Shown here piece after piece: positions 4,543-64,000 of a stretch of DNA of 64,000 nt (positions within the stretch are counted from its first letter, which is position 1; each line of letters opens with the position of its first letter). A program made the translations under genes and the position numbers. The DNA comes from Escherichia coli (GTDB lineage Bacteria > Pseudomonadota > Gammaproteobacteria > Enterobacterales > Enterobacteriaceae). The notes under the pieces were generated by a model. That model was not told the DNA's origin, searched no databases, and worked only from the letters and a program-made list of their open reading frames with translations. Where the stretch lies: assembly GCF_036507355.1 (NCBI RefSeq), contig NZ_AP027877.1; one strand, 5' to 3'.

Positions 4543-4659
4543 CAAGAGAACGCAACAGCGCACTTGCTTTGCCACAGTTGAATTTTGTGCCGTAACGATG
4601 TGCAAGCATGTAAGCATAAGGAGTCAAGGTATAGCGTGTTACTTAGTTACTCGGATTAA

Positions 4660-5137
4660 CAATCCCAACGTACAGAGCGGCGGATTTACAGAGTCAGCGC
4701 AGTCCCTGCTCCGGCAGTCAGTGGCAGGCGGCGTACTGAAGCAAACCATTATCGATACCGGCATCGGCGATACCATCGGCATGCTGATGTCACACGGCAA
4801 TATTTCTCCCTACATCATGGCGTGGTTGATAACCGTGCTGATCCGTCTGGCAACGGGTCAGGGCGTGGTCTCAGCCATGACGGCGGCGGGGATTATTAGC
4901 GCAGCAATCCTCGACCCGGCAACCGGTCAACTGGTGGGCGTCGACCCGGCGTTGCTGGTGCTGGCAACAGCGGCTGGCTCCAACACGCTGACCCATATCA
5001 ACGATGCTTCGTTCTGGCTGTTCAAAGGCTACTTTGATCTGTCGGTGAAGGATACGCTGAAAACCTGGGGTCTGCTGGAGCTGGTAAACTCCGTGGTTGG
5101 CCTGATAATCGTGTTGATCATCAGCATGATTGCATAA
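4660..5137 (+). pseudogene. 3' fragment of a GntP-family permease gene, 5' part replaced by IS5
   Basis: Only the C-terminal ~150 aa remain (..[71 protein letters not shown]..); the track ORF 4271..5137 reads through the IS5 terminus. Confidence 0.5.
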
Positions 5138-5186
5138 CGTTGATACCGCTCTGGCCCACAGCGCCAGAGCGGTTTTCCATCCTGCC

Positions 5187-11995: not shown

Positions 11996-12350
11996 GGTGA
12001 TGCTGCCAACTTACTGATTTAGTGTATGATGGTGTTTTTAAGGTGCTTGCGTGGCTTCCATTTCCATCAGATGTCCTTCCTGCTCCGCTACTGAAGGCGT
12101 GGTGCGTAACGGCAAAAGCACTGCCGGACATCAGCGCTATCTCTGCTCTCATTGCCGTAAAACATGGCAACTGCAGTTCACTTACACCGCCTCTCAGCCC
12201 GGTACGCACCAGAAAATCATTGATATGGCCATGAATGGCGTCGGATGTCGCGCCAGTGCACGCATTATGGGCGTTGGCCTCAACACGATTTTCCGCCATT
12301 TAAAAAACTCAGGCCGCAGTCGGTAACCTCGCGCATACAGCCGGGCAGTG
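11996..12350 (+). mobile_element. IS1 left portion (~355 bp), truncated by an IS2 insertion
   Basis: IS1 terminus GGTGATGCTGCCAACTTACTGATTTAGTGTATGATGGTG at 11996; intact insA; sequence switches to the IS2 terminus at 12351. Confidence 0.85.
12051..12326 (+). CDS. insA: IS1 InsA (91 aa, variant allele)
   Basis: [68 protein letters not shown].. Confidence 0.9.
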
Positions 12351-12979
12351 TAGACTGGCCCCCTGAATCTCCAGACAACCAATATCACTTAAATAAGTGA
12401 TAGTCTTAATACTAGTTTTTAGACTAGTCATTGGAGAACAGATGATTGATGTCTTAGGGCCGGAGAAACGCAGACGGCGTACTACACAGGAAAAGATCGC
12501 TATCGTTCAGCAGAGCTTTGAACCGGGAATGACGGTCTCCCTTGTTGCCCGGCAACATGGTGTGGCAGCCAGCCAGCTATTTCTCTGGCGTAAGCAATAC
12601 CAGGAGGGAAGTCTTACTGCTGTGGCTGCCGGAGAACAGGTCGTTCCTGCCTCTGAACTTGCTGCCGCCATGAAGCAGATTAAAGAACTCCAGCGCCTGC
12701 TCGGCAAAAAAACGATGGAAAATGAACTCCTTAAAGAAGCCGTTGAATATGGGCGAGCAAAAAAGTGGATAGCGCACGCGCCCTTATTGCCCGGGGATGG
12801 GGAGTAAGCTTCGTCAGCCGTTGTCTCCGGGTGTCGCGTGCGCAGTTGCACGTCATTCTCAGACGAACCGATGACTGGAAGGAAGGCCGCCGCAGCCGTC
12901 ACACGGATGATACGGATGTGCTTCGCCGTATACACCATGTTATCGGAGAGCTGCCCACATATGGTTATCGTCGGGTATC
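12351..12979 (+). mobile_element. IS2 left ~630 bp, 3' part deleted
   Basis: IS2 terminus TAGACTGGCCCCCTGAATCTCCAGACAACCAATATCACTTAAATAAGTGATAGTC at 12351; insC intact; insD reading frame leaves IS2 after ..PTYGYRRV near 12979. Confidence 0.85.
12442..12807 (+). CDS. insC: IS2 OrfA / InsC (121 aa)
   Basis: [56 protein letters not shown]..; A7 slippery run at 12707-12713. Confidence 0.9.
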
Positions 12980-13235
12980 CGGTCCCACCTTGCAGGTTTT
13001 ACGTACCCGCCAGTCGCCCGATGGCTGCGAGGATGGCAGTTACTACTACCTCGTGGATATGCAGAGAAAAACCGTCCAGCCACTGATGAATGCGCTGTGT
13101 ATTGCCGATAACATCAAACTGGAATACCAGGAGGTGACGGACCCGTATACCAAAGAAAAATACTTTGAGTACGCCCATGACGGCAAACTGATGGGGCAGC
13201 TACTGATACCCTCGAACCCTGACAATCAGGAATAA
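12765..13235 (+). pseudogene. Chimeric ORF: IS2 InsD N-terminus fused in frame to the 3' part of a YafY/YfjS-family lipoprotein gene
   Basis: N-terminal half is InsD (..[21 protein letters not shown]); C-terminal half (..[39 protein letters not shown]..) parallels the intact lipoprotein at 55404..55856. Confidence 0.7.
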
Positions 13236-13258
13236 AAACAACGATAAAGGAAACAGAA

Positions 13259-13726
13259 ATGACAATACGTTCACTAAGTCGGTTTGTGCTGGTGGGTGTA
13301 CTGCTCGCGAGCTTTAATGCCTCTGCTATCCCGGGGTTCTGGCAGCAGGGTTACGGTCAGGGCAATACGGAATACAGTGTGACCGAAGCCAGCGGGAAGA
13401 CGTTTACCATCAACTGCACAGGGAACCCGGACCAGAATGGTTTTTATCAGCATTCAGTCTTTCTTACCCTTGCCGATGACAAGATGGTCAGTTCGCACGA
13501 TGACGACACTACTATCACCGTAGTGATGGATCACCAGCAGTACATTATTCCGTCCAGCCTGGGCTGGCGTAACGGCGATAACGCCTGGTTTGACTTCATC
13601 AGCAATATCTCTGAGGCCGGGCAGTTCGACGTCTACGTCAATGACCACAAAGCAGGGACCTTCACTGCGGACCGGAAGAACGCTGAGAAAGTTCTGTCCA
13701 CTCTCGGAGACTGCAGCAACGACTGA
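13259..13726 (+). CDS. Secreted protein of unknown function, prophage-remnant module (YkfB-position)
   Basis: N-terminal signal peptide [23 protein letters not shown]; position between lipoprotein fragment and DUF905 gene. Confidence 0.55.
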
Positions 13727-13802
13727 TAGTAGTATCTTCCCCAGCAAATCCACCCCGACAGCTAGCAGGCTGCCGGGGTTTTCTTTTATCAGGAGCCCGA
13801 AA

Positions 13803-14042
13803 ATGACCCAATCCGTGTTGCTGCCACCGGGGCCTTTCACCCGGAGACAAGCGCAAGCGGTCACTACCACGTACAGCAATATCACACTCGAAGACGACCA
13901 GGGCAGTCACTTCCGTCTGGTGGTTCGTGATACTGAAGGCCGGATGGTCTGGCGGGCATGGAACTTTGAGCCGGATGCCGGTGAAGGTCTTAACCGCTAT
14001 ATCCGCACCTCAGGCATCCGTACAGACACGGCCACCCGCTGA
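13803..14042 (+). CDS. Small DUF905-like protein (79 aa, YkfF-position)
   Basis: ATG at 13803 inside ORF 13590..14042; size and position as in CP4-6/CP4-57-type modules. Confidence 0.5.
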
Positions 14043-14139
14043 TCGCGAAGCATTTACCCGCATTCACCTCCCCGAACACACTTTATATCCCCATACGCCA
14101 GCCATCGCCGCTGGCGTTTTTATTGACGGAGACATACCC

Positions 14140-14598
14140 ATGACAACACAGACGCAGCACGACCTCGCACCCGCTAACCAACCCGAATTTGAACTGACCG
14201 TCACGCCGGTCCCCGATGAACAGCGTATCGATTTCTGGCCACAGTACTTTGGCGCTATCCCGCAGTGGCTACTCCTGGAGCCGCATATCTTCGCCTGGAT
14301 GGACCGCTTCTGTGAGGGCTACAGCGGTGGTATCTGGTCGTTCTACACCCTCAGCAATGGCGGCGCATTTATGTCCCCCGAGCCTGACAACGATGAGACA
14401 TGGCGTCTGTTTAACTGCCTGAACGGTAACGATGCCCAAATGAGTGCAGAAGCAGCAGGTATTGCTGTCTGCCTGATTGCGTATAGCCACCATGCCTGCC
14501 GTACAGAATGTGACGCGATGACCGCACACTATTACCGCCTGCGGGAGTATGCCATGCAACATCCAGAGGCTCACGCCATTCTGCGTATTATCGACTGA
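14140..14598 (+). CDS. Antirestriction protein, ArdB/KlcA-like (YafX/YfjX family)
   Basis: ..[51 protein letters not shown].. ; paralogue of 58068..58538. Confidence 0.75.
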   Translation: MTTQTQHDLAPANQPEFELTVTPVPDEQRIDFWPQYFGAIPQWLLLEPHIFAWMDRFCEGYSGGIWSFYTLSNGGAFMSPEPDNDETWRLFNCLNGNDAQMSAEAAGIAVCLIAYSHHACRTECDAMTAHYYRLREYAMQHPEAHAILRIID

Positions 14599-14613
14599 CC
14601 GAAGGAGCAACAG

Positions 14614-15090
14614 ATGAAACAGCTTTCCTTTTTACCCGGCGAGATGACGCCACAGGACCGGCGTCTCATTCAGCGGGCGCTCAGGGCTCTGGACCGCCAC
14701 CTGCATGAGCCCGGCGTAGCCTTCACCTCTACCCACGCCGTACGTGAATGGCTGCGACTGCATATGGCCGCGCTTGAGCGGGAAGAGTTCCGGGTGTTGT
14801 ATCTGGACAACCAGAATCAGTTGATTGCCCATGAAACGCTCTTCACCGGCACGATTAACCGCACCGAGGTGCATCCCCGGGAGGTGGTCAAACGTGCTCT
14901 GCACTTCAACGCGGCGGCGGTGATACTCGCGCATAACCATCCTTCCGGCGAGACGACACCTAGCCAGGCCGACAAAACCCTCACGCAGCGACTGGTTCAG
15001 GTGCTTCAGCTGGTGGATATCCGTGTCCCTGACCATCTGATTGTCGGTGGCAGGCAAATCTATTCGTTCGCAGAACACGGTCTGCTTTGA
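14614..15090 (+). CDS. RadC-like JAB-domain protein (YkfG/YfjY/YeeS family)
   Basis: JAMM-like motif ..AAAVILAHNHPSGETTPSQADKTLTQRL.. Confidence 0.8.
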   Translation: MKQLSFLPGEMTPQDRRLIQRALRALDRHLHEPGVAFTSTHAVREWLRLHMAALEREEFRVLYLDNQNQLIAHETLFTGTINRTEVHPREVVKRALHFNAAAVILAHNHPSGETTPSQADKTLTQRLVQVLQLVDIRVPDHLIVGGRQIYSFAEHGLL

Positions 15091-15098
15091 GGTATTAC

Positions 15099-15320
15099 AT
15101 GAAAATTATCAGTAAACGCAGGGCAATGACGATATACCGCCAGCATCCTGAGTCCCGAATCTTTCGCTACTGCACCGGCAAATACCAGTGGCACGGTAGC
15201 GTCTGTCATTACACCGGCAGGGACGTTCCGGATATCGCCGGAGTCCTCGCGGTATACGCCGAACGCCGCCAAGACCGCAATGGGCCCTATACCTGCCTGA
15301 TGAGCATCACCCTGAACTGA
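15099..15320 (+). CDS. DUF987 protein (YkfH/YpjJ/YeeT family)
   Basis: MKIISKRRAMTIYRQHPESRIFRYCTGKYQWHGSVCHYTG.. ; paralogue at 59050..59271. Confidence 0.7.
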   Translation: MKIISKRRAMTIYRQHPESRIFRYCTGKYQWHGSVCHYTGRDVPDIAGVLAVYAERRQDRNGPYTCLMSITLN

Positions 15321-15338
15321 CAATAGTGGAGAACTGTA

Positions 15339-16018
<680 letters not shown>

Positions 16019-16399
16019 ACATTGCGTACAACCTTCCCGATTTACATTTCTGAACTTCCTCCCTTGTTTACCTATTGCGTAATGCGCCTGCTACTACCCG
16101 GCAGGCGCGTTATCTTTTTACGGACAAACAATCATGCAACCAGAAGTTGAAGTATTAACCGATCATAATGAGCTAATTTGTTCGAGCTTTATTGAACACA
16201 TTGCCAACACATTAAATTTAGGAGTGGTGTACAACTAAACCTGCAGCCAAGGATGTATAGTGAGCGAAGCCCTATCAGGCCTTTTTGGTCAGTAGATAAG
16301 ATTGATCTTCGTTGATAGAATTTACTTACACCAGCTGTTACATTAAGATAATTTTTTGGTGGGAGAATGATAAGATCTTACGTAACAATTTGATTTTAA

Positions 16400-16475
16400 T
16401 GGTGCCGATAATAGGAGTCGAACCTACGACCTTCGCATTACGAATGCGCTGCTCTACCAACTGAGCTATATCGGC
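16400..16475 (-). tRNA. thrW: tRNA-Thr (anticodon CGU)
   Basis: Reverse complement reads GCCGATATAGCTCAGTTGGTAGAGCAGCGCATTCGTAATGCGAAGGTCGTAGGTTCGACTCCTATTATCGGCACCA. Confidence 0.9.
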
Positions 16476-49857: not shown

Positions 49858-50559
49858 TTATGAACTCCTTGTGAAATTATCAACTGCTGTTTTACGAACA
49901 ACCCGTCGTTAATCCCCGACGGGTTAGAGTGTGATGCGGCTCACATCAGGAACCACACCCTTTTCTTTATTCGAGTTACAGGCACACGTAATTAGCACCT
50001 ACTGAAAAACTCTTTTATGGTGTTTAAATATATTTTTAGTCAATTTCAGAACACGGTCACATAAGCTAAAAATATATCAACTTCAACAGCAGAATTATCC
50101 ATAACGTATCTTCCCCCCCATAAAAATCCACAGCCGCGTCAAAAACAAATTATTACGACACTTACTCCGCCATCGTTCCAGCACGCAATTAAGATATTCC
50201 TTAAAGGAATTCCTTATGATGTATTGCCAGCAATTAATTAATTGATAAAACCATACATAAAACTTATTAATCAATTTAATAAATGCATATAAATCAATAT
50301 ATTATTGTATTTGATTGACCGTAAAATCATATTCATCAAGTCTATAAATACCAAAATCTATTTCACTATAATATATTAGCAAGGAAGAATGCATCTCTTT
50401 CTAAAATATAAATAGTTCTTTTAATATTTTATTTCATGAGTAGAATACTGATCACAACAGAAGGAAGGTTACATTATCTAACTGCCACTGAAACGGTATC
50501 TTCGGTATTTTTATGCAGTACGAAAATGCTGTGCTCATGGTCTGAACGGGAACATTTTT

Positions 50560-50715
50560 ATGAGCAAAATGAACAACAATGGCGGCAGTGTCGCGCCGAA
50601 AGAAAGAATCAGCGTTCGGTATACACCAAAAGTTGATGGGGTGGCTGCTGATATCGAATTGCCGCTGAATTTATTGATCACCGGCAATCTGAAAGGGAAA
50701 CCAGATAACACGCCG
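50560..50715 (+). pseudogene. tssB: tssB (sheath small subunit) 5' stub, ~52 codons, cut by IS3-family element
   Basis: MSKMNNNGGSVAPKERISVRYTPKVDGVAADIELPLNLLITGNLKGKPDNTP then IS terminus; TssB N-terminal pattern; too short for the ORF track. Confidence 0.55.
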
Positions 50716-50772
50716 TGAATCGCCACGGGTTTAACAGACACCTCAGAGTCATTTAAGATGGCTTAAAGAGAG

Positions 50773-51057
50773 GTGCCCATGAGCGGTAAGCGTTATCCCG
50801 AAGAGTTTAAAATTGAAGCAGTCAAACAGGTTGTTGATCGCGGTTATTCTGTTGCCAGCGTTGCAACACGTCTCGATATCACCACCCACAGCCTTTACGC
50901 CTGGATAAAGAAGTACGGTCCGGATTCTTCCGCTAATAAAGAACAGTCAGATGCTCAGGCCGAGATCCGCCGTCTCCAGAAAGAGCTGAAGCGGGTTACC
51001 GACGAACGGGACATATTAAAAAAAGCCGCGGCGTACTTCGCAAAGCTGTCCGACTGA
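50773..51057 (+). CDS. IS3-family transposase OrfA
   Basis: MPMSGKRYPEEFKIEAVKQVVDRGYSVASVATRLDITTHSLYAWIKKY.. Confidence 0.85.
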   Translation: MPMSGKRYPEEFKIEAVKQVVDRGYSVASVATRLDITTHSLYAWIKKYGPDSSANKEQSDAQAEIRRLQKELKRVTDERDILKKAAAYFAKLSD

Positions 51058-51113
51058 GGTACGCCTTTATCCGTGACAACACCTGTTGCTGGCCTGTTCG
51101 CCTGCTCTGTCGG

Positions 51114-51926
51114 GTGCTGGATGTTCATCCCAGTGGTTTTTACGCCTGGCTTCAGCAGCCGCATTCACAACGCCATCAGGCAGACCTGAGGCTGACAGGG
51201 CAGATTAAACAGTTCTGGCTGGAATCGGGATGCGTCTATGGTTATCGCAAAATCCATCTGGATCTGCGGGACAGCGGGCAACAGTGCGGAGTGAACAGAG
51301 TCTGGCGACTGATGAAACGTGTCGGGATAAAGGCTCAGGTCGGATACCGGAGCCCGCGGGCACGTAAAGGCGAGGCCAGTATCGTGTCGCCCAACAGGCT
51401 CCAGCGACAGTTCAATCCGGATGCTCCGGATAAGCGTTGGGTAACGGACATAACCTACATCAGGACCCACGAAGGCTGGCTGTATCTTGCCGTGGTTGTT
51501 GATCTGTTCTCACGCAAAATTATCGGCTGGTCCATGCAATCCCGGATGACAAAGGACATTGTCCTGAACGCACTGCTGATGGCTGTATGGCGCCGTAATC
51601 CCCAAAAACAGGTGCTGGTTCATTCGGATCAGGGCAGTCAGTACACAAGCCATGAGTGGCAGTCGTTCCTGAAATCACACGGCCTGGATGGCAGCATGAG
51701 CCGTCGCGGTAACTGCCATGATAATGCGGTTGCAGAAAGCTTTTTCCAGTTGTTGAAACGCGAACGGATAAAGAAAAAGATCTACGGAACGCGGGAAGAA
51801 GCCCGCAGCGATATTTTTGATTACATCGAAATGTTTTATAACAGTAAGCGTCGGCATGGTTCCAGCGATCAGATGTCACCGACAGAATATGAAAACCAGT
51901 ATTATCAACGGCTCGGAAGTGTCTAG
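51114..51926 (+). CDS. IS3-family transposase OrfB (DDE integrase domain)
   Basis: ..WVTDITYIRTHEGWLYLAVVVDLFSRKIIGWSM..VHSDQGSQYTSHEW.. Confidence 0.85.
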   Translation: MLDVHPSGFYAWLQQPHSQRHQADLRLTGQIKQFWLESGCVYGYRKIHLDLRDSGQQCGVNRVWRLMKRVGIKAQVGYRSPRARKGEASIVSPNRLQRQFNPDAPDKRWVTDITYIRTHEGWLYLAVVVDLFSRKIIGWSMQSRMTKDIVLNALLMAVWRRNPQKQVLVHSDQGSQYTSHEWQSFLKSHGLDGSMSRRGNCHDNAVAESFFQLLKRERIKKKIYGTREEARSDIFDYIEMFYNSKRRHGSSDQMSPTEYENQYYQRLGSV

Positions 51927-52198
51927 ATTATCCGTGGCGATTCAGTTGTCAAGCAGATAGAAGCCATCTAGGTCAGGGGGAATGACTAGGAATTACTCCC
52001 CAAGGGTAGCGTACGTCTACACACATCAAATTACCTCCCGGACAGGGACATAGTAGAAATATTGTGTATTGCAATTATGGATACTGTCATCGTCTAGGTA
52101 GTTCGCCAGCTTTATAGTGTTTTACTGAATTTGGCCACCTGAGCAGAGGTGATATGGGAGAGTGATTTTCATACGCTCTCGTATGGTTTCCGGCCTGA

Positions 52199-52426
52199 AT
52201 GCAGTGTTCATCACGCGATCCGCACGGTGAAATTACAGCTCACAGACTGTGGGGAAACCCGGGGCGCTGGGTGATTGAAGACGACCTGTCCAGTTACTTC
52301 GACACCGTACACCATCGACTGCTGATGAAAGCCGTACGCCGCAGGATCAGTGACGCACGTTTTATGGCCCTCCTGTGGAAAACCATCAAGGCGGGCACAT
52401 CGAGGTCGGTCTCTTTCGGGCGGTAA
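52199..52426 (+). pseudogene. Reverse transcriptase fragment (ykfC-like)
   Basis: ..VIEDDLSSYFDTVHHRLLMKAVRRRISDARFMALLWKTIKAG.. resembles RT finger/palm motifs; no continuation. Confidence 0.45.
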
Positions 52427-52429
52427 GTG

Positions 52430-52684
52430 ACGCCGCGCCAGCTGACGTTGCCACGAATATTCGCCAATACGCTGCCAGACTTCGGTATGAAAGCGCAGAA
52501 TCAATGACCGGTAATCGGCCATGCTTTCGCGGTACGGCAGCGTCAACGTAAAGCAGAACACCACGAGTCGTGGGTAATGGTCAACGGCCTGTTGCAGAAA
52601 GGCTCGTGTATTTGTCGTGTCAGTCGAATTGCCGGAGACGATGGAGGGAGAATAAGGATTCATAACGGCGCTCTCAATGAACAC
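52430..52684 (-). pseudogene. Inovirus Gp2-family protein, N-terminal fragment
   Basis: ..AFLQQAVDHYPRLVVFCFTLTLPYRE.. resembles the N-terminus of Gp2-family proteins of CP4-type islands; remainder of the track ORF is antisense to the RT fragment. Confidence 0.4.
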
Positions 52685-52888
52685 TGGTGTGATGGACAGG
52701 AGTGTGATGTTGCAGGTGTGCTGCTCATCATCGATCCCATATCATTACGTTCGCTCACTAAGACGGAGTGCCTTTCGTCATTTAACCTGTCACAATCCAA
52801 ATAATTTCAGACAGATATTATCTCCGTGAATCCCCCGCCTCCTTAACCGGAGCGCGGGGATTTTTCTTTTTCACGTTGAGAACTCTGT

Positions 52889-53771
52889 ATGACTAAACCT
52901 CACGGCCTTCAGGCCCTTGAACAACCGCTGGCGTCGCTTCCCGATGCGCTTCGCCAGCTTATTCTTGAACGTATTCAGAATCTCACCCACTATGAGCCGG
53001 TGATTGGTATCATGGGCAAAAGCGGTGCCGGTAAGTCTTCGCTCTGTAACGAACTCTTCCGGGGTGAGGTCTCCCCCGTCAGTGATGTGAACGCCTGTAC
53101 CCGTGAAGTGCTGCGCTTCCGGCTGCGCAGCGGGCGTCACAGTCTGGTGATTGTTGATTTACCGGGTGTGGGAGAAAACGGGCAACGGGACCATGAATAC
53201 CGTGCCCTGTACCGGCGTATGCTGCCGGAACTGGACCTGGTTCTGTGGGTCATTAAGTCCGATGACCGGGCGCTGTCGGTGGACGAGCAGTTCTGGCGCG
53301 GTGTGATGCAGCCTTACCAGCAGCAGGTGGTGTTCGTGATTAACCAGGCCGACAAAATAGAACCCAGCCATGAATGGGATACCCGTTCTGGTACTCCCTC
53401 AGCACAGCAACAGAAAAATCTTCAGGAAAAGCAGGTTGCCATTACCACGATGTTTAAGCCACATCACCCGGTCTGCGTGGTATCCGCATGTACCGGATGG
53501 GGCGTGGAGGATATGGTAGCAACCATGATGCGCTGTCTGCCGGACCGCGCCACCAGCCCAGTAGCGACACAGTTGCACGGGAGGCTCTGCACGGAGCCGG
53601 TAAAGTCGCAGGCCCGTGACGGCTTCGGTGAGGCGGTGGGGCGGTGGGGCGGGTGTTCGATACGGCAGAATCATCGTTATTCCTGCCTGCGCCGCTGAAG
53701 ACGGTGATACGTACCGTGCGTGATGCTGTGGTGTCTGTAGCCCGCGCGGTCTGGGACTGGATCTTCTTCTG
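52889..53771 (+). pseudogene. YeeP/YfjP-family GTPase with 3' frameshift from an 8-bp tandem duplication
   Basis: P-loop GKSGAGKSSLCN; cggtgggg repeated in tandem at 53634..53649; removing one copy restores ..GEAVGRVFDTAESSLFLPAPLKTVIRTVRDAVVSVARAVWDWIFF. Confidence 0.65.
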
Positions 53772-54032
53772 AATGAGTAAAAGGTCATCAGGACTGTAGT
53801 GAATGACTCTGTTTATTCACCGCCTGGTAGATGATTATTTCCAGGCAGACATAACCTGTCCTGACCAGCAAAAGATACCACCAGTCATAAGCGCGTCACC
53901 ACTGCCGACGTTGCATCCACACAGTCTTCTTGCACCAGGCGTTTCGCTACGTATGACGGACACAACCTGTCAGTCCCATCCTTTACAGTAATACCTTCTT
54001 TATTAATCAATTACCCAACACGGAGATAATAC

Positions 54033-54736
54033 ATGTCTCAGGCTGAGCGTCGTTATGACCGCCTGTCTGTCCGGCTTTCTCTAATTATCAGCCGTCTGCT
54101 CGCGGGTGAAACGCTGAATATGCGCAAACTGGCCGCTGAGTTTGGCATCTCGGAGCGTACCCTACATCGTGATTTCCGCGAGCGTCTGATTTATCTCGAC
54201 CTCGAATATCAGGATGGCTGCTGCCGTCTGCTGACCGGAGGCCGTCAGGAGATTCGGGAGGAGGCCGCAATGCAGTTTGCCCGTCAGTCAGGCACTGGCG
54301 CGTTGTTTCCTGATATGGACCACCATCTGGTCAATTCATTGCTGAGCAGCAAGGACTCCTCGCCATGTCTTATCTGGCATCCGTAACGTCTTCCCGCCCA
54401 GGCATCTTCACACGACTGGTCAGGGCGGTATCAGAAAACAGGAAGGTAACCCTGCTGGCTGACGGATGCCGTTGCGACAACCTTGCCCCCTACCGACTGA
54501 TTTTCAGCACCGGTGGGTGGTTTCTGGTGGGGGAACACCTTGCCCGGATAACCGTTTTTGCACTGCACACAGTTCACTCCGTGACGTTTCACGCGGAAAC
54601 CTTCACACCAGACGGACATTTCACCCGCATTCTGTCACACCCGGATTTTTTACAGGCGTTACCTCATTTTCATGTTTTTCATTCACTACTCGCTGACGGC
54701 AGTTACGGGCAGCTTACCCATAAGGAACAGGCATGA
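54033..54736 (+). pseudogene. YfjR-like HTH/WYL transcriptional regulator split into two overlapping ORFs by a frameshift
   Basis: ORF 54033..54386 carries the HTH (..[20 protein letters not shown]..); ORF 54365..54736 carries a WYL-like segment (..APYRLIFSTGGWFLVG..); combined length ~233 codons. Confidence 0.55.
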
Positions 54737-55368
54737 AATTACTCACCTCGGCGGCGCTGGCCGCCAGCCTCTGCATTACCTCTGTGACCCCGGCCATCGC
54801 AGAAAATATCGTGGGTTCAGTTAAGGCCTGGCAGTACATGCAGGCTGATGGCTGGAAATCCGCTGATGGATACGATGATAACCGCATGCATAACGAGTTA
54901 TACCAGGCGGTCGTTCTTGATAATTATCCCTGGACGAATCACTTTCTGCTTCGTAGCAGAGGCGGTAGTTCGCTTTATCTGGCAGACAAGAAAGCTAAAA
55001 CTGTCAAATACATCGATATAAAACCTCGCGACGAGTATCCGTTACATCTTCAGGTTGTTTATCGGGGAATTGATGACGGGAGTGGCTGTTATTTCGCCAT
55101 TGTAGATGACCGAATGGCAAACTACTGGACGATTGTTGAAGATCGTCTTCTCTATCAGGACCCACCTGTTGAAGACGTCGATGCGAAAGCAGCTGAGCTT
55201 AGAAAACAACTCACGCCGGAAGTCGTGATGATGGTGAAGGATAATTGTATTGACAAACAGCAGCAGGCTGCACTGGCAGCTAAGCGTTCTGAAAAAGATC
55301 GAGAGTTGCAACAGTGGGTGGCGAAACAGAGCCTGGCGGAATTATGTCGTCGTACCGGCAACTGCTGA
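54733..55368 (+). CDS. Secreted protein of unknown function (211 aa)
   Basis: Signal peptide MKLLTSAALAASLCITSVTPAIA. Confidence 0.5.
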   Translation: MKLLTSAALAASLCITSVTPAIAENIVGSVKAWQYMQADGWKSADGYDDNRMHNELYQAVVLDNYPWTNHFLLRSRGGSSLYLADKKAKTVKYIDIKPRDEYPLHLQVVYRGIDDGSGCYFAIVDDRMANYWTIVEDRLLYQDPPVEDVDAKAAELRKQLTPEVVMMVKDNCIDKQQQAALAAKRSEKDRELQQWVAKQSLAELCRRTGNC

Positions 55369-55403
55369 CCCGCTGAAAACAACCATAACAGGGAGTTTTT
55401 AAC

Positions 55404-55856
55404 ATGAATATATTTACTACGCGTCTGACGACCTCTCTGGTGGTCATCGGCACTCTGCTGCTCTCCGGCTGCGACAGCAAGGAAGATGCAGGCGTGAAGA
55501 CGATTGCCCGATTTAAGGACCTGACTCCGCCGCCCTTCAGCGACGTGGTGGCGCATAAATCCGATATCGAGCAGGAATGGGTAAAAAAGGATGCCTTCGG
55601 CACACCGCTATACACGGTAATGAAAACTCGCCAGTCGCCGGAAGGCTGTGAGTCCGGCAGTTATTACTACATTGCTGATATGCAGCAGAAAACGGTGCAG
55701 CCGCTGATAGCCGCCCTGTGTCTCGCGGACAATATTACTCTGAGCTTCCGGATCGAGACCGACAGCTACACGGGTGAGAAATCGGTGGTGTATTCGCACG
55801 ATGGCAAGGAAATGGGGAAACTCTTGCTGCCGGATAACCAGGAGAACCATCCATGA
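55404..55856 (+). CDS. YfjS/YafY-family lipoprotein (150 aa)
   Basis: Lipobox LLLSGC; C-terminal half parallels the fragment at 12980..13235. Confidence 0.65.
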   Translation: MNIFTTRLTTSLVVIGTLLLSGCDSKEDAGVKTIARFKDLTPPPFSDVVAHKSDIEQEWVKKDAFGTPLYTVMKTRQSPEGCESGSYYYIADMQQKTVQPLIAALCLADNITLSFRIETDSYTGEKSVVYSHDGKEMGKLLLPDNQENHP

Positions 55857-56305
55857 AGAAGCTGAAAGGTGTTATCTCTGCTGCAGTCCTGAGTCTGTAT
55901 TTGCTGACACCGGCCCATGCTGATGGCGGTTTTCAGGGTGCCATCAAAGGCGGCATTCCGGCCTACACCCGCGATGTAAAACACAACAACCCCTTCTGGT
56001 GTAACCAGTACAAACTGGTGAGAAAGATGTGTGAAGTGGTTTCGCAATCGGAAAATGGGCGCGTTGCCATTGTCAGAATGGTCCCCACCGACTGGAAATG
56101 CCCCAACGGTATCTGGGGTGTGGTTGACCGTTCTAATGGTGACGCCATGGAGTTGGTCCCGACGGCGAAAATGTCCCTGGAGCAGTACTGCAGCAAGGCA
56201 TTCAGTGCAGGTTTTGTCAAACCACAGAACAGGAAATCACTGGCCGACGTCGTGATGTACTACAACGGCAAGCCAGTCGGTTCTTTCGAATACATTGAAG
56301 AGTGA
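55853..56305 (+). CDS. Secreted Cys-containing protein of unknown function (150 aa)
   Basis: Signal peptide MKKLKGVISAAVLSLYLLTPAHA. Confidence 0.55.
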   Translation: MKKLKGVISAAVLSLYLLTPAHADGGFQGAIKGGIPAYTRDVKHNNPFWCNQYKLVRKMCEVVSQSENGRVAIVRMVPTDWKCPNGIWGVVDRSNGDAMELVPTAKMSLEQYCSKAFSAGFVKPQNRKSLADVVMYYNGKPVGSFEYIEE

Positions 56306-56367
56306 ACTCCCCGCCTCAGGGAGAAGCTTCCCGTATTCATTTAACACATTAAAAATAAAGGAAAAGA

Positions 56368-56910
56368 ATGAACTGGCATTATGAGAAAAATGGCGTGCGT
56401 CACGACAATGTGACCGAAGCCGACATAACCGAACGTATTCAGCGCGGGGAGCTGAATGCCTCAACGCTGGTATGGCAACAGGGCATGACGGAATGGCAGC
56501 CGCTGTCAGCCACGCCGCTGGCAGATGTCCTGAAACAATGTGCGGTTCCCCCCGCGCTGCCCGGCAATCGTATCCCCGGAAGCATGGTCTGGACGCTGGC
56601 CTTTGCGCCCCTGATTGGGTATGCCCTGGAGATGTGGACGGCCGGGCTGAGCGGAATGGAATTTGAAGAGGCGTATGCCGCCGTGACGGAGGGGCAATAC
56701 TGGTTTATCACACTGATACTGAATATTGCGCTGGGGTATCTGGATGAACGACGGCTCCGTAAATCCGGCGTTGATACCGCCGCCTTTGGCTGGCTGGCCT
56801 GGCTGGTTCCGTTTTATCTGTGGCGTCGGGCAAAAGCCCTCGGACAGAAACCGGCTTACTTCTGGGTCTGGCTGGTCACGCTGACAGTGACAGTCCTGGG
56901 CGCAGGATAA
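56368..56910 (+). CDS. GYF/DUF4339-like N-terminal domain fused to a multi-pass membrane region (180 aa)
   Basis: ..LVWQQGMTEWQPLSATPLADVL.. followed by hydrophobic helices. Confidence 0.45.
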   Translation: MNWHYEKNGVRHDNVTEADITERIQRGELNASTLVWQQGMTEWQPLSATPLADVLKQCAVPPALPGNRIPGSMVWTLAFAPLIGYALEMWTAGLSGMEFEEAYAAVTEGQYWFITLILNIALGYLDERRLRKSGVDTAAFGWLAWLVPFYLWRRAKALGQKPAYFWVWLVTLTVTVLGAG

Positions 56911-56969
56911 CCGGCATCAGCGCTGTCCGGCCCGGATGAGCAGGCAAGTTAAATCAAGGAACAATATCA

Positions 56970-57800
56970 ATGAACAACATGCTGAAAAGTGTTATTTCCG
57001 CTGCGACCCTGAGTCTGTGTCTGCTGACACCCGCTCATGCAGAAGAGCAACGTTATATCAGTATTCCCAGCGTCTTCGGGGAAGGTAAGCACGTGTCCCG
57101 TTCAGACCATTACAGCTACATACCGACCATTACCCTGCTGGAGAACCTGCAGCGTGAAGGATTCCAGCCGTTCTTTGCCTGCCAGACCCGCGTCAGGGAC
57201 CAGAGCCGCCGTGAGCATACGAAACATATGCTGCGCCTGCGTCGCTCCGGGCAGATAACCGGTCAGCAGGTGCCGGAAATTATCCTGCTCAATTCGCATG
57301 ACGGTTCGTCCAGTTACCAGATGTTGCCGGGGTATTTCCGTGCCATCTGTACCAACGGTCTCGTCTGCGGGCAGTCATTTGGCGAGGTGCGAGTGCCACA
57401 CCGGGGAAATGTCGTGGAGAAAGTGATTGAAGGCGCTTACGAAGTCCTCGGTGTGTTCGACCGGGTGGAAGAGAAGCGTGATGCGATGCAGTCGCTTTTA
57501 CTCCCGCCACCGGCACAACAGGCTTTTGCCAGAGCCGCGCTGACGTACCGCTTCGGGGAAGAGCACCAGCCGGTGACGGAAGCGCAGATACTGACACCCC
57601 GCCGCTATGAAGACCGTCAGGATGACCTGTGGTCAGTTTTTAATCGGTGCCAGGAGAACCTGCTCAAAGGGGGGCTGCCAGGACGTACTGCCAAAGGCAA
57701 ACGCAGCCATACCCGCGCGGTGAAAGGCATCGACGGCGACGTTAAGCTCAACCGGGCACTCTGGGTGATGGCGGAAAAACTGCAGCAGGCGCTGAGCTGA
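56970..57800 (+). CDS. DUF932-family protein (YfjQ/YafZ-like) with an atypical signal-peptide-like N-terminus
   Basis: ..EIILLNSHDGSSSYQMLPGYFRAICTNGLVCGQSFGEVRVPHRGNVVEKVIEGAYEV..; first ~25 codons nearly duplicate the 5' end of the gene at 55853. Confidence 0.6.
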   Translation: MNNMLKSVISAATLSLCLLTPAHAEEQRYISIPSVFGEGKHVSRSDHYSYIPTITLLENLQREGFQPFFACQTRVRDQSRREHTKHMLRLRRSGQITGQQVPEIILLNSHDGSSSYQMLPGYFRAICTNGLVCGQSFGEVRVPHRGNVVEKVIEGAYEVLGVFDRVEEKRDAMQSLLLPPPAQQAFARAALTYRFGEEHQPVTEAQILTPRRYEDRQDDLWSVFNRCQENLLKGGLPGRTAKGKRSHTRAVKGIDGDVKLNRALWVMAEKLQQALS

Positions 57801-58067
57801 TGCCACCACTGCCTGATAACGCCCACCCGGCCGCCATTAATCCTGCCCCCTGGAGAACAACCCCGGCAGCCGCCCCATCTCCGATGACGACCTGTGCGCC
57901 TGTGCTCACACCTTCTTTATCGTCCCGGTGAACTCAGTTTCTGCCGGTTAAGTCTCGCTGACGGCCACTGGCCCTCACACTGTGATGAAGACGGCTATGC
58001 GCAGTCCTGTCCGTCACTCCGATTGAACCGGTATCCCCAACACAATGAATGAAAGAGGAAAAACAAC

Positions 58068-58538
58068 ATGACCGATAACACTCTGCCACTGTTCACACCC
58101 GCAGCAGATGCTCCTGCTGCGGCTCAGCATCAGATTATCGCTATACCGGTAACCGATGAGAACCGCATCAGCTTCTGGCCGCAGCACTTTGGCAGCATTC
58201 CGCAGTGGATAATCCTTGAGCCGACCATCTTCGCGTGGATGGACCGCTTCTGCACGGACTACAGCGGCGGCATCTGGAATTTTTACACGCTGAGCAACGG
58301 CGGCGCGTTTATGGCCCCGGAAGTGGAGAACGATGAACTCTGGTCGCTGTTTAACACGATGAACGGCAACGGCGGTGACATGAGTGCCGAAGCTGCAGGG
58401 ATTGCGGTCTGTCTGATGGCTTTCAGCCACCATGCCTGCCGTACCGAATGCGACGCCATGACGGAGCACTACTACCGCCTGCGGGACTACGCGCTCAACC
58501 ACGCGGAATGCAACGCCATCATGCACATCATCGACTGA
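58068..58538 (+). CDS. Antirestriction protein, ArdB/KlcA-like (156 aa)
   Basis: ..[51 protein letters not shown].. Confidence 0.8.
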
Positions 58539-58549
58539 GGTCAGCCGCT

Positions 58550-59029
58550 ATGGAGCAACAGTTACCGTTGTTTGCCCGTGAATTAGCCCCTGCCGACCAG
58601 CAGACAGTCAGGAAAGCCTTATCTCTGCTGGAGTGCCAGCTACGTGAAACCGGCGCGTCATTTACTTCCAGCCATGCTGTCCGCGACTGGCTGCGCCTGC
58701 AGCTCGCGTCACTGGAGCGGGAAGAGTTTACCGCGCTCTTTCTCGATAACCAGCATCGCCTGATAGCCCACGAAACGCTATTTACCGGCACCATCAACCA
58801 TACGCAGGTCCATCCCCGCGAAGTGGTGAAGGCCGGTCTGAAGCATAACTGCGCCGCTGTCATTGTCGCCCATAGCCATCCCTCCGGGGAGGCTGAACCC
58901 AGCAAGGCAGACCGTCAGGTCACTACGCGTATTCAGCAGGCGCTGGACCTGGTTGATATCCGCTTGCTGGACCACCTGGTGGTCGGCGGCATGGAGATCA
59001 CCTCGTTTGCAGATCGTGGCTGGCTGTAG
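58550..59029 (+). CDS. RadC-like JAB-domain protein
   Basis: Start [14 protein letters not shown] inside ORF 58448..59029; ..[27 protein letters not shown].. Confidence 0.8.
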
Positions 59030-59049
59030 CACAACAGGAGAATAACCGA

Positions 59050-59271
59050 ATGAAAATTATCAGTAAACGTCAGGCTATGGCGATATACCGCCAGCATCCG
59101 CAGTCCCGGTTGTTTCCCTTCTGCACGGGTAAATACAAATGGTCTGGCAGCATCTGCCACTACGCTGGGCAGGAGGTTCAGGATATCAGCGGTGTGCTCG
59201 CGGTCTTCGCTGAACGCCGTCAGAACCGCAACGGCCCCTATGTCGTATTACGCAGCGTCACGCTGAATTAA
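59050..59271 (+). CDS. DUF987 protein
   Basis: MKIISKRQAMAIYRQHPQSRLFPFCTGKYKWSGSICHYAGQEV.. Confidence 0.7.
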   Translation: MKIISKRQAMAIYRQHPQSRLFPFCTGKYKWSGSICHYAGQEVQDISGVLAVFAERRQNRNGPYVVLRSVTLN

Positions 59272-59294
59272 CACACGTTTAAGGAAGGCTAAAA

Positions 59295-59654
59295 TTGTCG
59301 AATAAAATACCGACAGTAAACCACGATATCACTGAACCCTGGTGGGGGCTTAAACGCAGTATCACGCCCTGTTTTGGCGCACGGCTGGTGCAGTCGGGCA
59401 ACTGTCTGCATTATCTCGCTGACCGGGCCAGCATCACCGGACAGTTCAGCGACGGGGATTTACGGCATCTCGACCAGGCATTTCCACTGCTGCTCAAACA
59501 GCTTGAACTGATGCTCACCAGCGGTGAACTCACTCCCCGCCATCAGCACTGTGTCACGCTCTATGCAAAAGGGCTGACCTGCGAGGCCGACTCCCTCGGC
59601 TCGCATGGTTACGTATACCTGGCGATTTATCCGACACCAGCGGCAACCGCGTAA
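59295..59654 (+). CDS. Type IV TA antitoxin, CbeA/YeeU family (TTG start)
   Basis: ..[79 protein letters not shown]; SD aaggaagg upstream. Confidence 0.8.
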
Positions 59655-59704
59655 AGCTTCTTACTACTTACCCTCGTTTTACCCATCAACAAAGAGATCC
59701 CACT

Positions 59705-60082
59705 ATGCAAACCCAACCACTATCCTCAACGCAGGAGGCTACATCACGCCCGTCACCGGTGGAGATCTGGCAACGGCTTCTGAGCCACCTGTTGGATCGT
59801 CACTACGGTCTGACGCTTAACGACACGCCGTTTGGCAACGACGGTGTGATTCAGGAGCATATCGACGCCGGTATATCACTGTGCGACGCCGTGAATTTTA
59901 TTGTGGAGAAGTACGATCTGGTGCGCATCGATCGTCACGGTTTCAGTACAGAAACACAGTTGCCGCGTCACACCAGTATCGATATTCTCCGCGCCCGCAA
60001 AGCCACCGGGTTGATGACTCGCAACGATTACAGAACGGTGACCGACATCACCACCGGTAAATACCGTGGGGGGCATCGATGA
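59705..60082 (+). CDS. Type IV TA toxin, CbtA/YeeV family (125 aa)
   Basis: ..[64 protein letters not shown].. Confidence 0.8.
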
Positions 60083-60570
60083 AGTTATCCCTGACGGTAG
60101 AAGCCGACGCCATCAACGTTCTGGCCCTGAATGCGGGCCGGATCGCTGTGGATATTGACGGCATTGAACTGGCTGCGCTGATCGATGTGGTCTGTGATAA
60201 CGGTTATTCCCTTCGCGTTGCTGACTCCCCCGGAAAGCTGGTCGTTGAAGATCCGCTTCCACCCGTCGCCCGCGTTAATGGCATCCAGTGCAGTACCGCG
60301 CATATTACGGAGAAAGACAACGCTCTGCTGTTTACTCTTTCACACCAGAATGAAGACTTTGGTGAGTCGGAATGGATTAGTTACACCGGGTCGGGTTATC
60401 TGCTCCACCTGGGTGCCTGGTCATTTCCGGTCTTACGCCTCAAACGTCTCGGTCTGTCGAAAGCCTGCCGTCGGTTAGTAGTGACGCTTATCCGTCGCTA
60501 CGCCGTTGGCATTGTTCATCTGGATGCCTTTGGCGAAGTGCTGCCGGGCTTTGACATTTTCGACTGGTAA
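60079..60570 (+). CDS. YeeW-like protein (DUF5983-type) downstream of cbtA
   Basis: Position and size typical of yeeW homologues in KpLE2/CP4-type modules. Confidence 0.5.
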
Positions 60571-60601
60571 ATCTTCTCACCAATAAGCACAGGATATTCT
60601 C

Positions 60602-60805
60602 ATGGAGAAATTAACCACCGAAGTGGCTCTCAACGTTCTGATTGACTGGCTGCAGGACAACATCGATTGTGGGAACATGATTATTTTCGACAACGACGAA
60701 GACAACACCGATTCAGCAGTGCTGTTGCCCTGGATTGAACGTGCGCGTCAGGACGTTCGCGATCTCCGTCATCTTCAACTTCTGCGACAGACCAGTACAG
60801 ATTAA
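60602..60805 (+). CDS. Small acidic protein (67 aa), DUF957-like by position
   Basis: ORF with ATG start; conserved slot after yeeW in such islands. Confidence 0.4.
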   Translation: MEKLTTEVALNVLIDWLQDNIDCGNMIIFDNDEDNTDSAVLLPWIERARQDVRDLRHLQLLRQTSTD

Positions 60806-60885
60806 CCACCGAACAGTACTCATCACTTACTCATAATCGCCAGCCCTCACCGGCTGGCGCTTTGCTTTATATAAGGAACGAAATA

Positions 60886-61730
60886 ATGTCAGAGCTTACT
60901 CTCACCAAACCCGAAGTATTAACCGGCCACACCGACGTGATTTGCTCCACCAGCATTGAGCGTATTGTCACGGGACGTAATGCCGCGCTGGCGCAGATTG
61001 AAGTGCTCATGCAACAACTGGACGATGTTTCGATGCTGACCCGCAGTCTCGGGGGAAAAACCGCGCTGGACTGGGCTATGAAGCAGGATTTCCGTTGCGG
61101 CTGCTGGTTGATGGAGAAACCAGAAACGGCGATGAAAGCTATTACCCGTAATCTCGATCGCAGCATATGGCGAGACCTGATGAAGAAGTCGGGCATGATT
61201 TCGCTCATGGATGCTCAGGCTCGTGACCAGTGGTACAACAGTCTGGAAAAGGATGACATTCCTGCCGTCAGCGAAGAGAATATTCTCAGCACGTTTGAGC
61301 AACTGCATCTGAACAAGGGCGAGGTGTTTGAGCGCGGAGTGATAAATGTGTTCAAAGGTTTAAGCTGGAATTTTAAGACAAATTCCCCTGCAAGTTTGGG
61401 GCGAAAATTATCGTTACCGGACTAGTCAAGTTCGATCGGTGGGGATTTGGGCTTAACTGGGGCTGGCAGCGTGACCGGTTAGCTGACCTTGAGCGTATGC
61501 TGATGCTTCTTGATGGCAAACCGGTTCCCTACAACCGCGCTGACGTTACCCGTCGTCTCAGCGATCATATCCATGAGAACAGGCACAGTAACCGTTACGA
61601 GGATGAGATGTTTGTGATTAAGTATTTTCAGAAGGGAACTGCACACATCGTATTCAAGCGACCTGAGTTGATTGATAAGCTGAACAACATCATCGCCCGA
61701 CACTATCCGGGAGCACTGCCAGCGAGATGA
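60886..61730 (+). pseudogene. DUF4942-like protein gene interrupted by a frameshift near 61400..61440
   Basis: ORF 60862..61425 (start MSELTLTKPE after SD aaggaa) and ORF 61497..61730 are joined by an alternative frame (..IIVTGLVKFDRWGFGLNWGWQRDRLADLERMLMLLDGK..). Confidence 0.45.
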
Positions 61731-61862
61731 GAGGTGAGTGAGTTGTCCGAAGCTATCTCAGGTGAGCCAGTGCAAGCCGGACGGCAATGGCATACTGGAT
61801 GGCATACCGAAAAAAACAAGCATAAAAAAGGCCATGCTAATCAATAGCATGGCCTCGAATAG

Positions 61863-61939
61863 TGGCGGAACGGACGGGACTCGAACCCGCGACCCCCTGC
61901 GTGACAGGCAGGTATTCTAACCGACTGAACTACCGCTCC
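61863..61939 (-). tRNA. aspV: tRNA-Asp (anticodon GUC)
   Basis: Reverse complement reads GGAGCGGTAGTTCAGTCGGTTAGAATACCTGCCTGTCACGCAGGGGGTCGCGGGTTCGAGTCCCGTCCGTTCCGCCA. Confidence 0.9.
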
Positions 61940-62071
61940 GCGTTGTGTTCCGTTGGGAACGAGGCGAATATTACGGATTGCCTCACCCTTCGTCAATGGT
62001 TTTTCTCATCTTTTGAATCGTTTGCTGCAAAAATCGCCCAAGTCGCTATTTTTAGCGCCTTTTACAGGTAT

Positions 62072-62803
62072 TTATGCCCGCCAGAGGCAGCTTCCGCCTT
62101 TCTTCTGCACCAGATCGAGACGGGCTTCATGTGCTGCAAGCTCTTCATCTGTCGCAAAAACAACGCGTAACTTACTTGCCTGACGTACAATGCGCTGAAT
62201 TGTTGCTTCACCTTGTTGCTGCTGTGTCTCTCCTTCCATCGCAAAAGCCATCGACGTTTGACCACCGGTCATCGCCAGATAAACTTCCGCAAGGATCTGG
62301 GCATCGAGTAATGCCCCGTGCAGCGTTCGTTTACTGTTATCTATTTCGTAGCGGGCACATAACGCATCGAGGCTGTTGCGTTTACCGGGAAACATTTTCC
62401 TCGCCACCGCAAGGCTATCGGTGACCTTACAGAAGGTGTTGGTCTTCGGAATATCACGCTTAAGCAACGAGAACTCGTAGTCCATAAAGCCGATATCGAA
62501 CGCTGCGTTATGGATCACCAACTCCGCGCCGCGGATATAGTCCATGAACTCATCGGCTACTTCGGCAAACGTGGGCTTATCGAGCAAAAACTCATCGGCA
62601 ATACCGTGTACGCCAAAGGCTTCCGGATCCACCAGCCGATCGGGTTTGAGATAAACATGGAAGTTATTGCCCGTCAGGCGACGGTTCACCACTTCAACGG
62701 CACCAATCTCAATGATCTTGTGGCCTTCATAGTGCGCACCAATCTGGTTCATACCGGTGGTTTCGGTATCGAGAACGATCTGGCGTGTAATTGCAGTGCT
62801 CAT
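62072..62803 (-). CDS. dnaQ: DNA polymerase III epsilon subunit (243 aa)
   Basis: Start [20 protein letters not shown] inside ORF 62072..62812. Confidence 0.95.
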
Positions 62804-62867
62804 AGCGGTCATTTATGTCAGACTTGTCGTTTTACAGTTCGATTCAATTACAGGAAGTCTACCAGAG

Positions 62868-63335
62868 ATGCTTAAACAGGTAGAAATTTTCACCGATGGT
62901 TCGTGTCTGGGTAATCCTGGACCTGGGGGCTACGGCGCTATTTTACGCTATCGCGGACGCGAGAAAACTTTTAGCGCTGGCTACACCCGCACCACCAACA
63001 ACCGCATGGAGTTGATGGCCGCTATTGTCGCGCTGGAGGCGTTAAAAGAACATTGCGAAGTCATTTTGAGTACCGACAGCCAGTATGTCCGCCAGGGTAT
63101 CACCCAGTGGATCCATAACTGGAAAAAACGTGGCTGGAAAACAGCAGACAAAAAACCAGTAAAAAATGTCGATCTCTGGCAACGTCTTGATGCTGCGCTG
63201 GGGCAGCATCAAATCAAATGGGAATGGGTTAAAGGCCATGCCGGACACCCGGAAAACGAACGCTGTGATGAACTGGCTCGTGCCGCGGCGATGAATCCCA
63301 CACTGGAAGATACGGGCTACCAAGTCGAAGTTTAA
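62868..63335 (+). CDS. rnhA: ribonuclease HI (155 aa)
   Basis: Start [26 protein letters not shown] inside ORF 62757..63335. Confidence 0.95.
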
Positions 63336-64000
63336 GCCTGTGGTTTACGACATTGCCGGGTGGCTCCAACCGCCTGGCGAATTCGTGGCTTGTTTTTACT
63401 CTGTTTCATCGGATTTAGCGTTAAAGGAATAGTCCGTTTCCGGGCAACAATAAGTTGTAAGCAACCAAGCGCAGGAATATGCGCATTCAAAAGTTTTCCT
63501 CCGTGTTTGTTCCATGGGAGAACGTGGAAACGGCTGGCGTGTAGCACTTCAAAATTCAACAAAGAGAGCCAGTCCAGTTGCCGCATCAGAGTAAACATCC
63601 GGCTGTTATAGGGCGAGGTTTTGCGCAATACCGGCACAAGTTTGCGTAATCCCATTAAACTAATGGGATTGAAGCCACTAATGACCAGCCAGCCATCATC
63701 AATCAATACCCGATCGGCTTCACGCAATAAACGATGCGGATCGGTGCACCACGGCAATGTATGTGCCAGTAGACAAACATCAACGGATTTATCGGCAAAA
63801 GGAAGATGAAGTGGATCCGCCTGCACCTGGACGGGCATTCCTTGCGCAGAAACATTCACTTGATGAGAAACCGCGCACGCTTCGCAATTGATTTCTGCGC
63901 TTAAATTGCCAATCTTAAGCAGATGAAAACCATACATTTTAGTGAACCACGGGTTGAGCTGGCGCTCCAGCGCCTTGCGATAAAGCTCTCCCCAGGGCAA
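63332..64000 (-). CDS. yafS: SAM-dependent methyltransferase YafS, 5' end beyond window
   Basis: ..[35 protein letters not shown]..; convergent with rnhA. Confidence 0.8.

Follow-up and report, generated by a model that had tools for sequence, protein, structure and literature searches.

A strain-specific in-frame deletion in a CP4-type island of Escherichia coli very probably joined an irmA-like signal sequence to a DUF932 gene

Why should a DUF932 gene begin with what looks like a secretion signal? The question arises in a 64,000-nucleotide (nt) stretch of the E. coli contig NZ_AP027877.1 (assembly GCF_036507355.1; hereafter the window, whose positions are used throughout), in which a 276-aa open reading frame (ORF) at 56970..57800 starts with MNNMLKSVISAATLSLCLLTPAHAEEQ and a neighbouring 150-aa ORF at 55853..56305 starts with MKKLKGVISAAVLSLYLLTPAHADGG, both on the plus strand, as are the other features mapped below in the same genomic island. 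A reading of the sequence alone (the sequence-only reading) had pointed to the likeness of these two 5' ends and had proposed either a chimeric 5' end made by recombination or an unusual exported variant. Our analysis indicates that ORF 56970-57800 is very probably a fusion gene, created by a strain-specific in-frame deletion of 870 bp that joined the 5' end of an irmA-like gene to a DUF932 gene. IrmA (interleukin receptor mimic protein A, Aec69) is a protein of uropathogenic E. coli, encoded in CP4-44-type islands and with a fibronectin-III-like fold (PDB 5EK5).

The parental arrangement is preserved in other strains, as found in a search set of 5,426 complete E. coli genomes. When positions 56300-57900 were compared with this set by megablast, the query was covered to 100% by the best matches, in two pieces that extend over about 2,470 bp versus the 1,601 bp queried; this two-piece coverage was seen in all 30 best of the 859 matching records, so that about 870 bp extra are present there. 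In strain ATCC 8739 (locus L001), the genes run from a YfjS/YafY lipoprotein through a homologue of the 55853 gene (hypothetical protein), DUF4339, an IrmA-family protein (150 aa) and DUF905 to DUF932 (272 aa), and beyond DUF932 through an antirestriction protein, RadC, DUF987 and the YeeU/CbtA toxin-antitoxin pair to tRNA-Asp. The undeleted irmA-like gene of this strain is recognized by the Pfam model of the IrmA family (PF18673), and the 150-aa protein that is deleted in the window matches the IrmA crystal structure PDB 5EK5 over residues 23-147 (E = 7.6e-54). The chimeric ORF matches this ATCC 8739 gene exactly over its first 95 nt and the ATCC 8739 DUF932 gene exactly over its last 737 nt, and the two parental stretches overlap by one T at 57064, the sole microhomology (L001 breakpoints 4764 and 5634). 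On the left flank of the junction, ...ATCAGTA is followed by TCCGCAAT, and on the right flank, ...CAGGTTG is followed by TTCCCAGCG. The 59 nt of spacer that precede the chimeric ORF likewise represent the native sequence upstream of the irmA-like gene, from which they differ only by one inserted T at 56926.

The parental start codons lie 882 bp apart and 870 bp were removed; the fusion is therefore in frame, with ATT (Ile) as the hybrid codon 32. The deletion took away irmA-like codons 33-150, all of DUF905, the ribosome-binding site of DUF932, and DUF932 codons 1-27 plus one or two bases at the start of codon 28 (residues 1-28). Two terminator-like hairpins disappeared with them, one after the irmA-like gene (L001 about 5147-5180, read directly from the sequence) and a second with a 13-bp stem (L001 5488-5517). 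We propose that a single strain-specific event of this kind, in a CP4-type island at tRNA-Asp, gave rise to the fusion gene. It would have been an illegitimate rather than a repeat-mediated recombination, because only 1 nt of microhomology is found at the junction, about 20 nt past the end of the signal-peptide repeat described below.

The chimeric protein, identical to GenBank BED23708.1 (VEE46_34760), is thus composed of IrmA-like residues 1-31, the hybrid Ile 32 and DUF932 residues 29-272. Positions 56970..57041 encode a putative Sec-type signal peptide of 24 residues, MNNMLKSVISAATLSLCLLTPAHA, unchanged from the irmA-family gene and identical to that of intact, widespread IrmA-family proteins, with K6 in the n-region, a hydrophobic core and A-H-A at -3 to -1, then EEQ; its N-terminus looks like a Sec signal also by its 12-residue Kyte-Doolittle maximum, 2.31 in the chimera versus 0.91 in the native DUF932 parent. 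By base comparison, the mature IrmA-like start follows at 57042..57063 (seven codons, EEQRYIS, plus the first base of codon 32). The deletion junction itself is the single T at 57064..57064, which may come from either parent (the 870 bp gone being L001 4764-5633 or 4765-5634), and 57065..57800 is the DUF932 coding part (YfjQ/YafZ-type, aec71-like), which begins with parent residue 29, includes the stop codon and is 100% identical to the ATCC 8739 gene. The sequence-only reading had placed canonical DUF932 sequence directly after the signal peptide, a point that needs correction, for eight IrmA-like residues (EEQRYISI) intervene. Compared with a YfjQ/YafZ-type protein of standard length (272 aa), fusion residues 33-276 are identical to residues 29-272, whereas the native 28 residues, including a conserved P-L-T-x-E-E-L segment, are swapped for the Sec-type signal peptide. 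Pfam finds DUF932 (PF06067) as the sole domain, at residues 41-265 (model 2-227 of 227, E = 3.3e-50).

Of the irmA-like gene, the fusion still has the region before the start codon, the start codon itself, the signal peptide and the first 8 residues of the mature protein, whereas nothing of the IrmA fold (residues 33-150) is left. No more than IrmA-like residues 1-32 survive and PF18673 is not detected; the product is not an IrmA-family protein, because the entire fold is lost and Pfam detects the DUF932 domain only. Nearly all IrmA-family proteins, in many Enterobacterales, start with M-x-K-L-K-G-x-I-S-x-x-A-L-S-L-C-L-L-x-P-A-x-A, then EEQRYISIR, and this type of signal peptide is native to the IrmA family. 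The idea of a recombination-made 5' end foreign to DUF932 is borne out to that extent; the donor and mechanism that it implied are not, the donor being the irmA-family gene directly upstream.

The donor implied by the sequence-only reading was the gene at 55853, and the likeness of the two 5' ends is real. They form an ungapped direct repeat in the signal-peptide coding parts (copy 1 at 55856..55923, copy 2 at 56976..57043, spacing 1120 bp) with 55 of 68 nt identical. In 300 dinucleotide shuffles of the 68-mer, matched anywhere in the 64-kb window on either strand, the best ungapped match averaged 34.1 +/- 1.2 and reached at most 39, so the similarity is far better than chance; blastn on the two 5' ends gave E = 5.6e-14. 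At the protein level, BLASTP found 17 of 21 residues identical (81%) and no alignment past these 21. The two ends are therefore alike in DNA and protein, as had been noted, although at 81% "nearly identical" overstates it.

One could thus imagine that homologous recombination or gene conversion between the signal repeats put the 5' end of the 55853 gene onto DUF932, the more so as the two ends are significantly similar and the repeats do recombine elsewhere, with crossovers at GCTGAAA and GCTGACACC. Nevertheless, the 95 nt are 100% identical to the ATCC 8739 irmA-like gene versus 81% to the 55853 gene, the upstream spacer is irmA-like but for the one inserted T, the junction is found about 20 nt beyond the 3' end of the repeat and has 1 nt in common with the DUF932 side, and DUF932 has no homologous signal-peptide sequence with which the repeat could pair. 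This base-level comparison refutes such an origin, which is extremely improbable.

What the repeats have done can be seen in other genomes. In a second island type (type B, L002-L005), the irmA gene directly follows the lipoprotein gene and its product (P0018) begins with MKKLKSVISAAT...; its DNA is the same as the 5' end of the 55853 gene up to ATGAAGAAGCTGAAA and is irmA-like from there on, with the crossover inside the shared GCTGAAA. About 1.12 kb is missing from type B, namely the DUF4339 gene together with the mature part of the 55853-type gene. In a metagenomic scaffold (L007, protein P0168), the crossover is a different one, situated at GCTGACACC towards the distal end of the repeat. 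The loci compared for this recurrent, repeat-bounded 1.12-kb deletion are L002:3971-4127, L007:93-249, and L001:3524-3680 and 4640-4799. Among complete E. coli genomes, 40 have the lipoprotein-irmA junction of the deleted form and 39 the DUF4339-irmA junction of the undeleted form. Recombination between the repeats is real in this island family, where it made hybrid irmA genes and not the DUF932 fusion.

The gene at 55853..56305 is predicted to encode a secreted protein of 150 aa with four Cys (WP_000734138 type, phrog_17072), its signal coded by 55853-55921. Its family is narrow (10 clusters, with a phrog_17072 match), and while the mature part is conserved, at least three signal peptides precede it (the IrmA type, which is confined to one branch of the family, MYSIQKKQ... 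and MQQVKRIF...). When the alignments of the IrmA and 55853 families were compared by hhalign, only 26 signal-peptide columns aligned; no homology of the mature domains was found by sequence and profile comparison, in that BLASTP was confined to the 21 signal residues and the two fall into different PHROGs or none. In a Salmonella island (L006), a 55853-family gene carries another signal, and homology with ATCC 8739 sets in at L001 3614, close to where the signal-coding region ends; the shared signal is therefore a transferred 5' module, and one older than the 870-bp deletion. We also considered the 55853 gene and irmA as diverged tandem paralogues and rejected this, the 81% DNA identity being confined to the signal, the mature parts having no profile similarity, and the 55853 family bearing other signal peptides where the upstream context differs.

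Does the fusion, then, represent an exported form of DUF932? A phmmer search with the DUF932 parent against 1.84 billion representatives returned 5,478 relatives. In the best 150 of them, the median 12-residue Kyte-Doolittle maximum of the first 40 residues was 0.75, and a hydrophobic N-terminus (>1.9) was present in two only, both of them long fusions (398 and 447 aa). The expectation that DUF932 proteins are not normally secreted agrees with the 148 of 150 representatives that have no such N-terminus, and the chimeric nature of the 5' end also withstands this comparison, the N-terminus not being shared by other family members. In the 398-aa protein (P0187, from the representative library), a signal-peptide-like N-terminus, MKLPVKLLMSLISLVSVIARA..., precedes no more of DUF932 than residues 79-244; this is probably a separate fusion or else a mis-called gene.

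What the fusion has lost is a conserved part of the domain protein. In an alignment of 64 full-length DUF932 homologues, parent residues 12-28 are ungapped, with P18 conserved in 61% and L19 in 89%, hydrophobic residues at positions 24, 27 and 28, and an invariant P29. AlphaFold2, run on the DUF932 alignment, gave a model of the parent with a predicted local distance difference test score (pLDDT) of 93.8 and a predicted template modelling score (pTM) of 0.88, in which residues 11-30 (pLDDT about 95) include a strand at 12-14 and a helix at 21-27. The family-typical N-terminal segment (R/S-x-x-P-L-T-D/E-D/E-x-hydrophobic) before P29, with no signal peptide, is absent from the fusion; the deletion cut directly before the invariant P29, and a conserved, model-ordered element was lost as a result. 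We infer that DUF932 function is lost in the fusion, because the element removed is conserved and ordered in the AlphaFold2 model. As for what that function might be, YfjQ and YafZ, the DUF932 proteins that K-12 encodes in its cryptic prophages CP4-57 and CP4-6, continue to be listed as uncharacterised (PMC11551758), and our literature searches found no functional study of DUF932, yfjQ or yafZ. PHROGs places both DUF932 and DUF905 in families of unknown function. NCBIfam offered no useful family for the IrmA-like, 55853, 211-aa (see below) or lipoprotein products and only a sub-threshold TIGR03299 match for DUF932, and phmmer against PDB sequences gave only weak partial matches for DUF932 and the 55853 protein.

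The allele is confined to one strain, as both an exact-protein look-up and the genome search indicate. The exact 276-aa protein was found as one record on one 4.64-Mb contig among about 15 billion proteins, compared with at least 1,000 contigs for each parental protein, and a 301-nt query centred on the junction was covered to at least 80% by none of the 5,426 complete genomes, the best matches covering half each. This speaks against the unusual exported variant of the sequence-only reading as a natural subfamily, the allele being on record once. A functional, selected, exported DUF932 variant with a new periplasmic or extracellular role would fit the in-frame fusion with its complete Pfam domain, and its signal is that of an intact, widespread protein family whose member IrmA, with its predicted signal sequence, reaches the culture supernatant at a size of about 13 kDa, with no dependence on Ag43, YeeR or the translocation and assembly module TAM (PMC4807369). 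Such a variant is nonetheless highly improbable, given that it is a singleton in both collections, that the conserved strand and helix are lost, that full-length DUF932 representatives are not secreted, and that two other frameshifts in this island copy indicate relaxed selection. The ORF is an ordinary strain-specific fusion scar and not a new kind of secreted DUF932 protein.

Several points weigh against this interpretation. The whole Pfam domain and the kept reading frame would allow a residual or altered function; one deletion in three would be expected to stay in frame, so that the frame says little about selection; and export of the fusion is a prediction. Parsimony and the family-wide conservation of both parental genes are what favour a deletion here over an insertion in ATCC 8739. 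The 870-bp gap might, moreover, be an assembly or sequencing artefact that hides a true arrangement like that of ATCC 8739: it is present in one assembly only, and the exact-gene index holds no contig for the chimeric protein. This is very unlikely, since assembly collapses arise between repeats and the breakpoints here have 1 nt in common, the contig is a chromosome-scale sequence of 4.64 Mb, and the nearby small indels bear the signatures of replication slippage and are not of the homopolymer-error type.

These indels belong to a wider picture of the CP4-type genomic island, which occupies 52642..61939, adjoins tRNA-Asp (61863-61939) and is collinear with the ATCC 8739 island. The two are >99.4% identical apart from indels and differ by ten substitutions, an 8-bp insertion, a 10-bp deletion, the one extra T and the 870-bp gap at 57064. 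The 8-bp insertion is a tandem duplication (GGCGGTGG) at 53632..53639 that shifts the frame of a GTPase gene, leaving 269 aa instead of 291 aa. The 10-bp deletion is a slippage event at 54375..54376, in which one GGCATCCGGG copy was lost and a 237-aa helix-turn-helix regulator was split into ORFs 54033-54386 and 54365-54736. In four type B islands taken from other E. coli assemblies, the 8-bp site always has the allele of ATCC 8739 and never that of the window. The deletion allele of the window at the 10-bp site is present in none of the four, of which a single one has a flank identical to that of ATCC 8739. Set against ATCC 8739 and these type B islands, both small indels look derived in this strain. 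Since these two slippage frameshifts accompany the 870-bp deletion, making three disruptive lesions, this copy of the prophage-like island is decaying. Deletion-derived fusion ORFs and pseudogenes are known from decaying cryptic prophages and genomic islands, and the case described here shares with such scars an illegitimate deletion with minimal microhomology, confinement to one strain, and slippage frameshifts in neighbouring island genes. Unlike typical decay scars, it is in frame and has equipped a domain that is not normally secreted with an intact export signal.

Upstream of the 55853 gene lies the YfjS/YafY-family lipoprotein gene (55404..55856), whose stop codon overlaps the start of the 55853 gene, and between the repeats lies a membrane-protein gene of the DUF4339/GYF_2 type (56368..56910), which holds the position of yeeR in the published yeeR-irmA cluster. 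We take aec70 to be DUF905 and aec71 to be DUF932, and on this assumption the parental order (a yeeR-like DUF4339 gene, irmA, two genes, then radC/yeeS) fits the published irmA cluster. The latter is described as flu-yeeR-irmA(aec69)-aec70-aec71 (PMC6480617). Further upstream, a 211-aa ORF (54733-54810 being its 5' part) has a signal-peptide-like start, MKLLTSAALAASLCITSVTPAIAEN, which by eye is like the IrmA-type signal at about half of the protein positions, the DNA alignment being weak. An Rfam scan of 50000-64000 found tRNA-Asp only. The window also holds a second, CP4-6-like island remnant at about 12000-16100, which adjoins tRNA-Thr (16400-16475), lacks DUF932, and contains IS fragments (an IS1 InsA-like ORF at 12051-12326 and an IS3-family ORF at 12397-12807) and antirestriction, RadC and toxin-antitoxin genes. 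Its DUF905 homologue (13803-14021) is 62% identical to the deleted DUF905, and its ORF 12765-13235 is an apparent fusion of a transposase-like N-terminus with a YafY-like lipoprotein C-terminus.

If expressed, the fusion would probably share a transcript with DUF4339, the gene that precedes it, and its translation would begin at the irmA-like start; a consensus promoter scan of the 59-bp spacer before this start found no promoter, a result that is uninformative about expression. Translation would direct a passenger of 252 residues, without its native N-terminal element, to the Sec pathway, with predicted cleavage after A-H-A, and the product would be routed to the Sec translocon or misfold. 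We consider the product most likely to be a non-functional or unstable by-product of island decay. The loss of both hairpins may allow read-through from the upstream genes into DUF932, antirestriction, radC and cbtA. A more far-reaching idea is that the IrmA-type signal segment acts as a portable recombination handle by which secreted cargo genes are repeatedly swapped or deleted, and that it has here led, by accident, to real Sec export of a DUF932 protein that is normally cytoplasmic. The three or more signal types on the 55853 family and the two independent crossovers between the repeats support the handle, and the idea as a whole is very unlikely; if true, the strain would offer a natural experiment on DUF932 function and toxicity.

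For this strain, the finding means that the island-borne IrmA-like antigen and DUF905 have been lost, and that BED23708.1 is to be regarded as a gene fusion or a pseudogene and not as evidence for a secreted DUF932. For the island family, recombination between the repeats explains the hybrid N-terminus (MKKLK-SVISAAT...) of some irmA genes, which is relevant to typing or vaccine-antigen surveys that use the IrmA N-terminus or the island structure. The signal-peptide repeats are a small, clear example of how short coding repeats shape the gene content of CP4-type islands.

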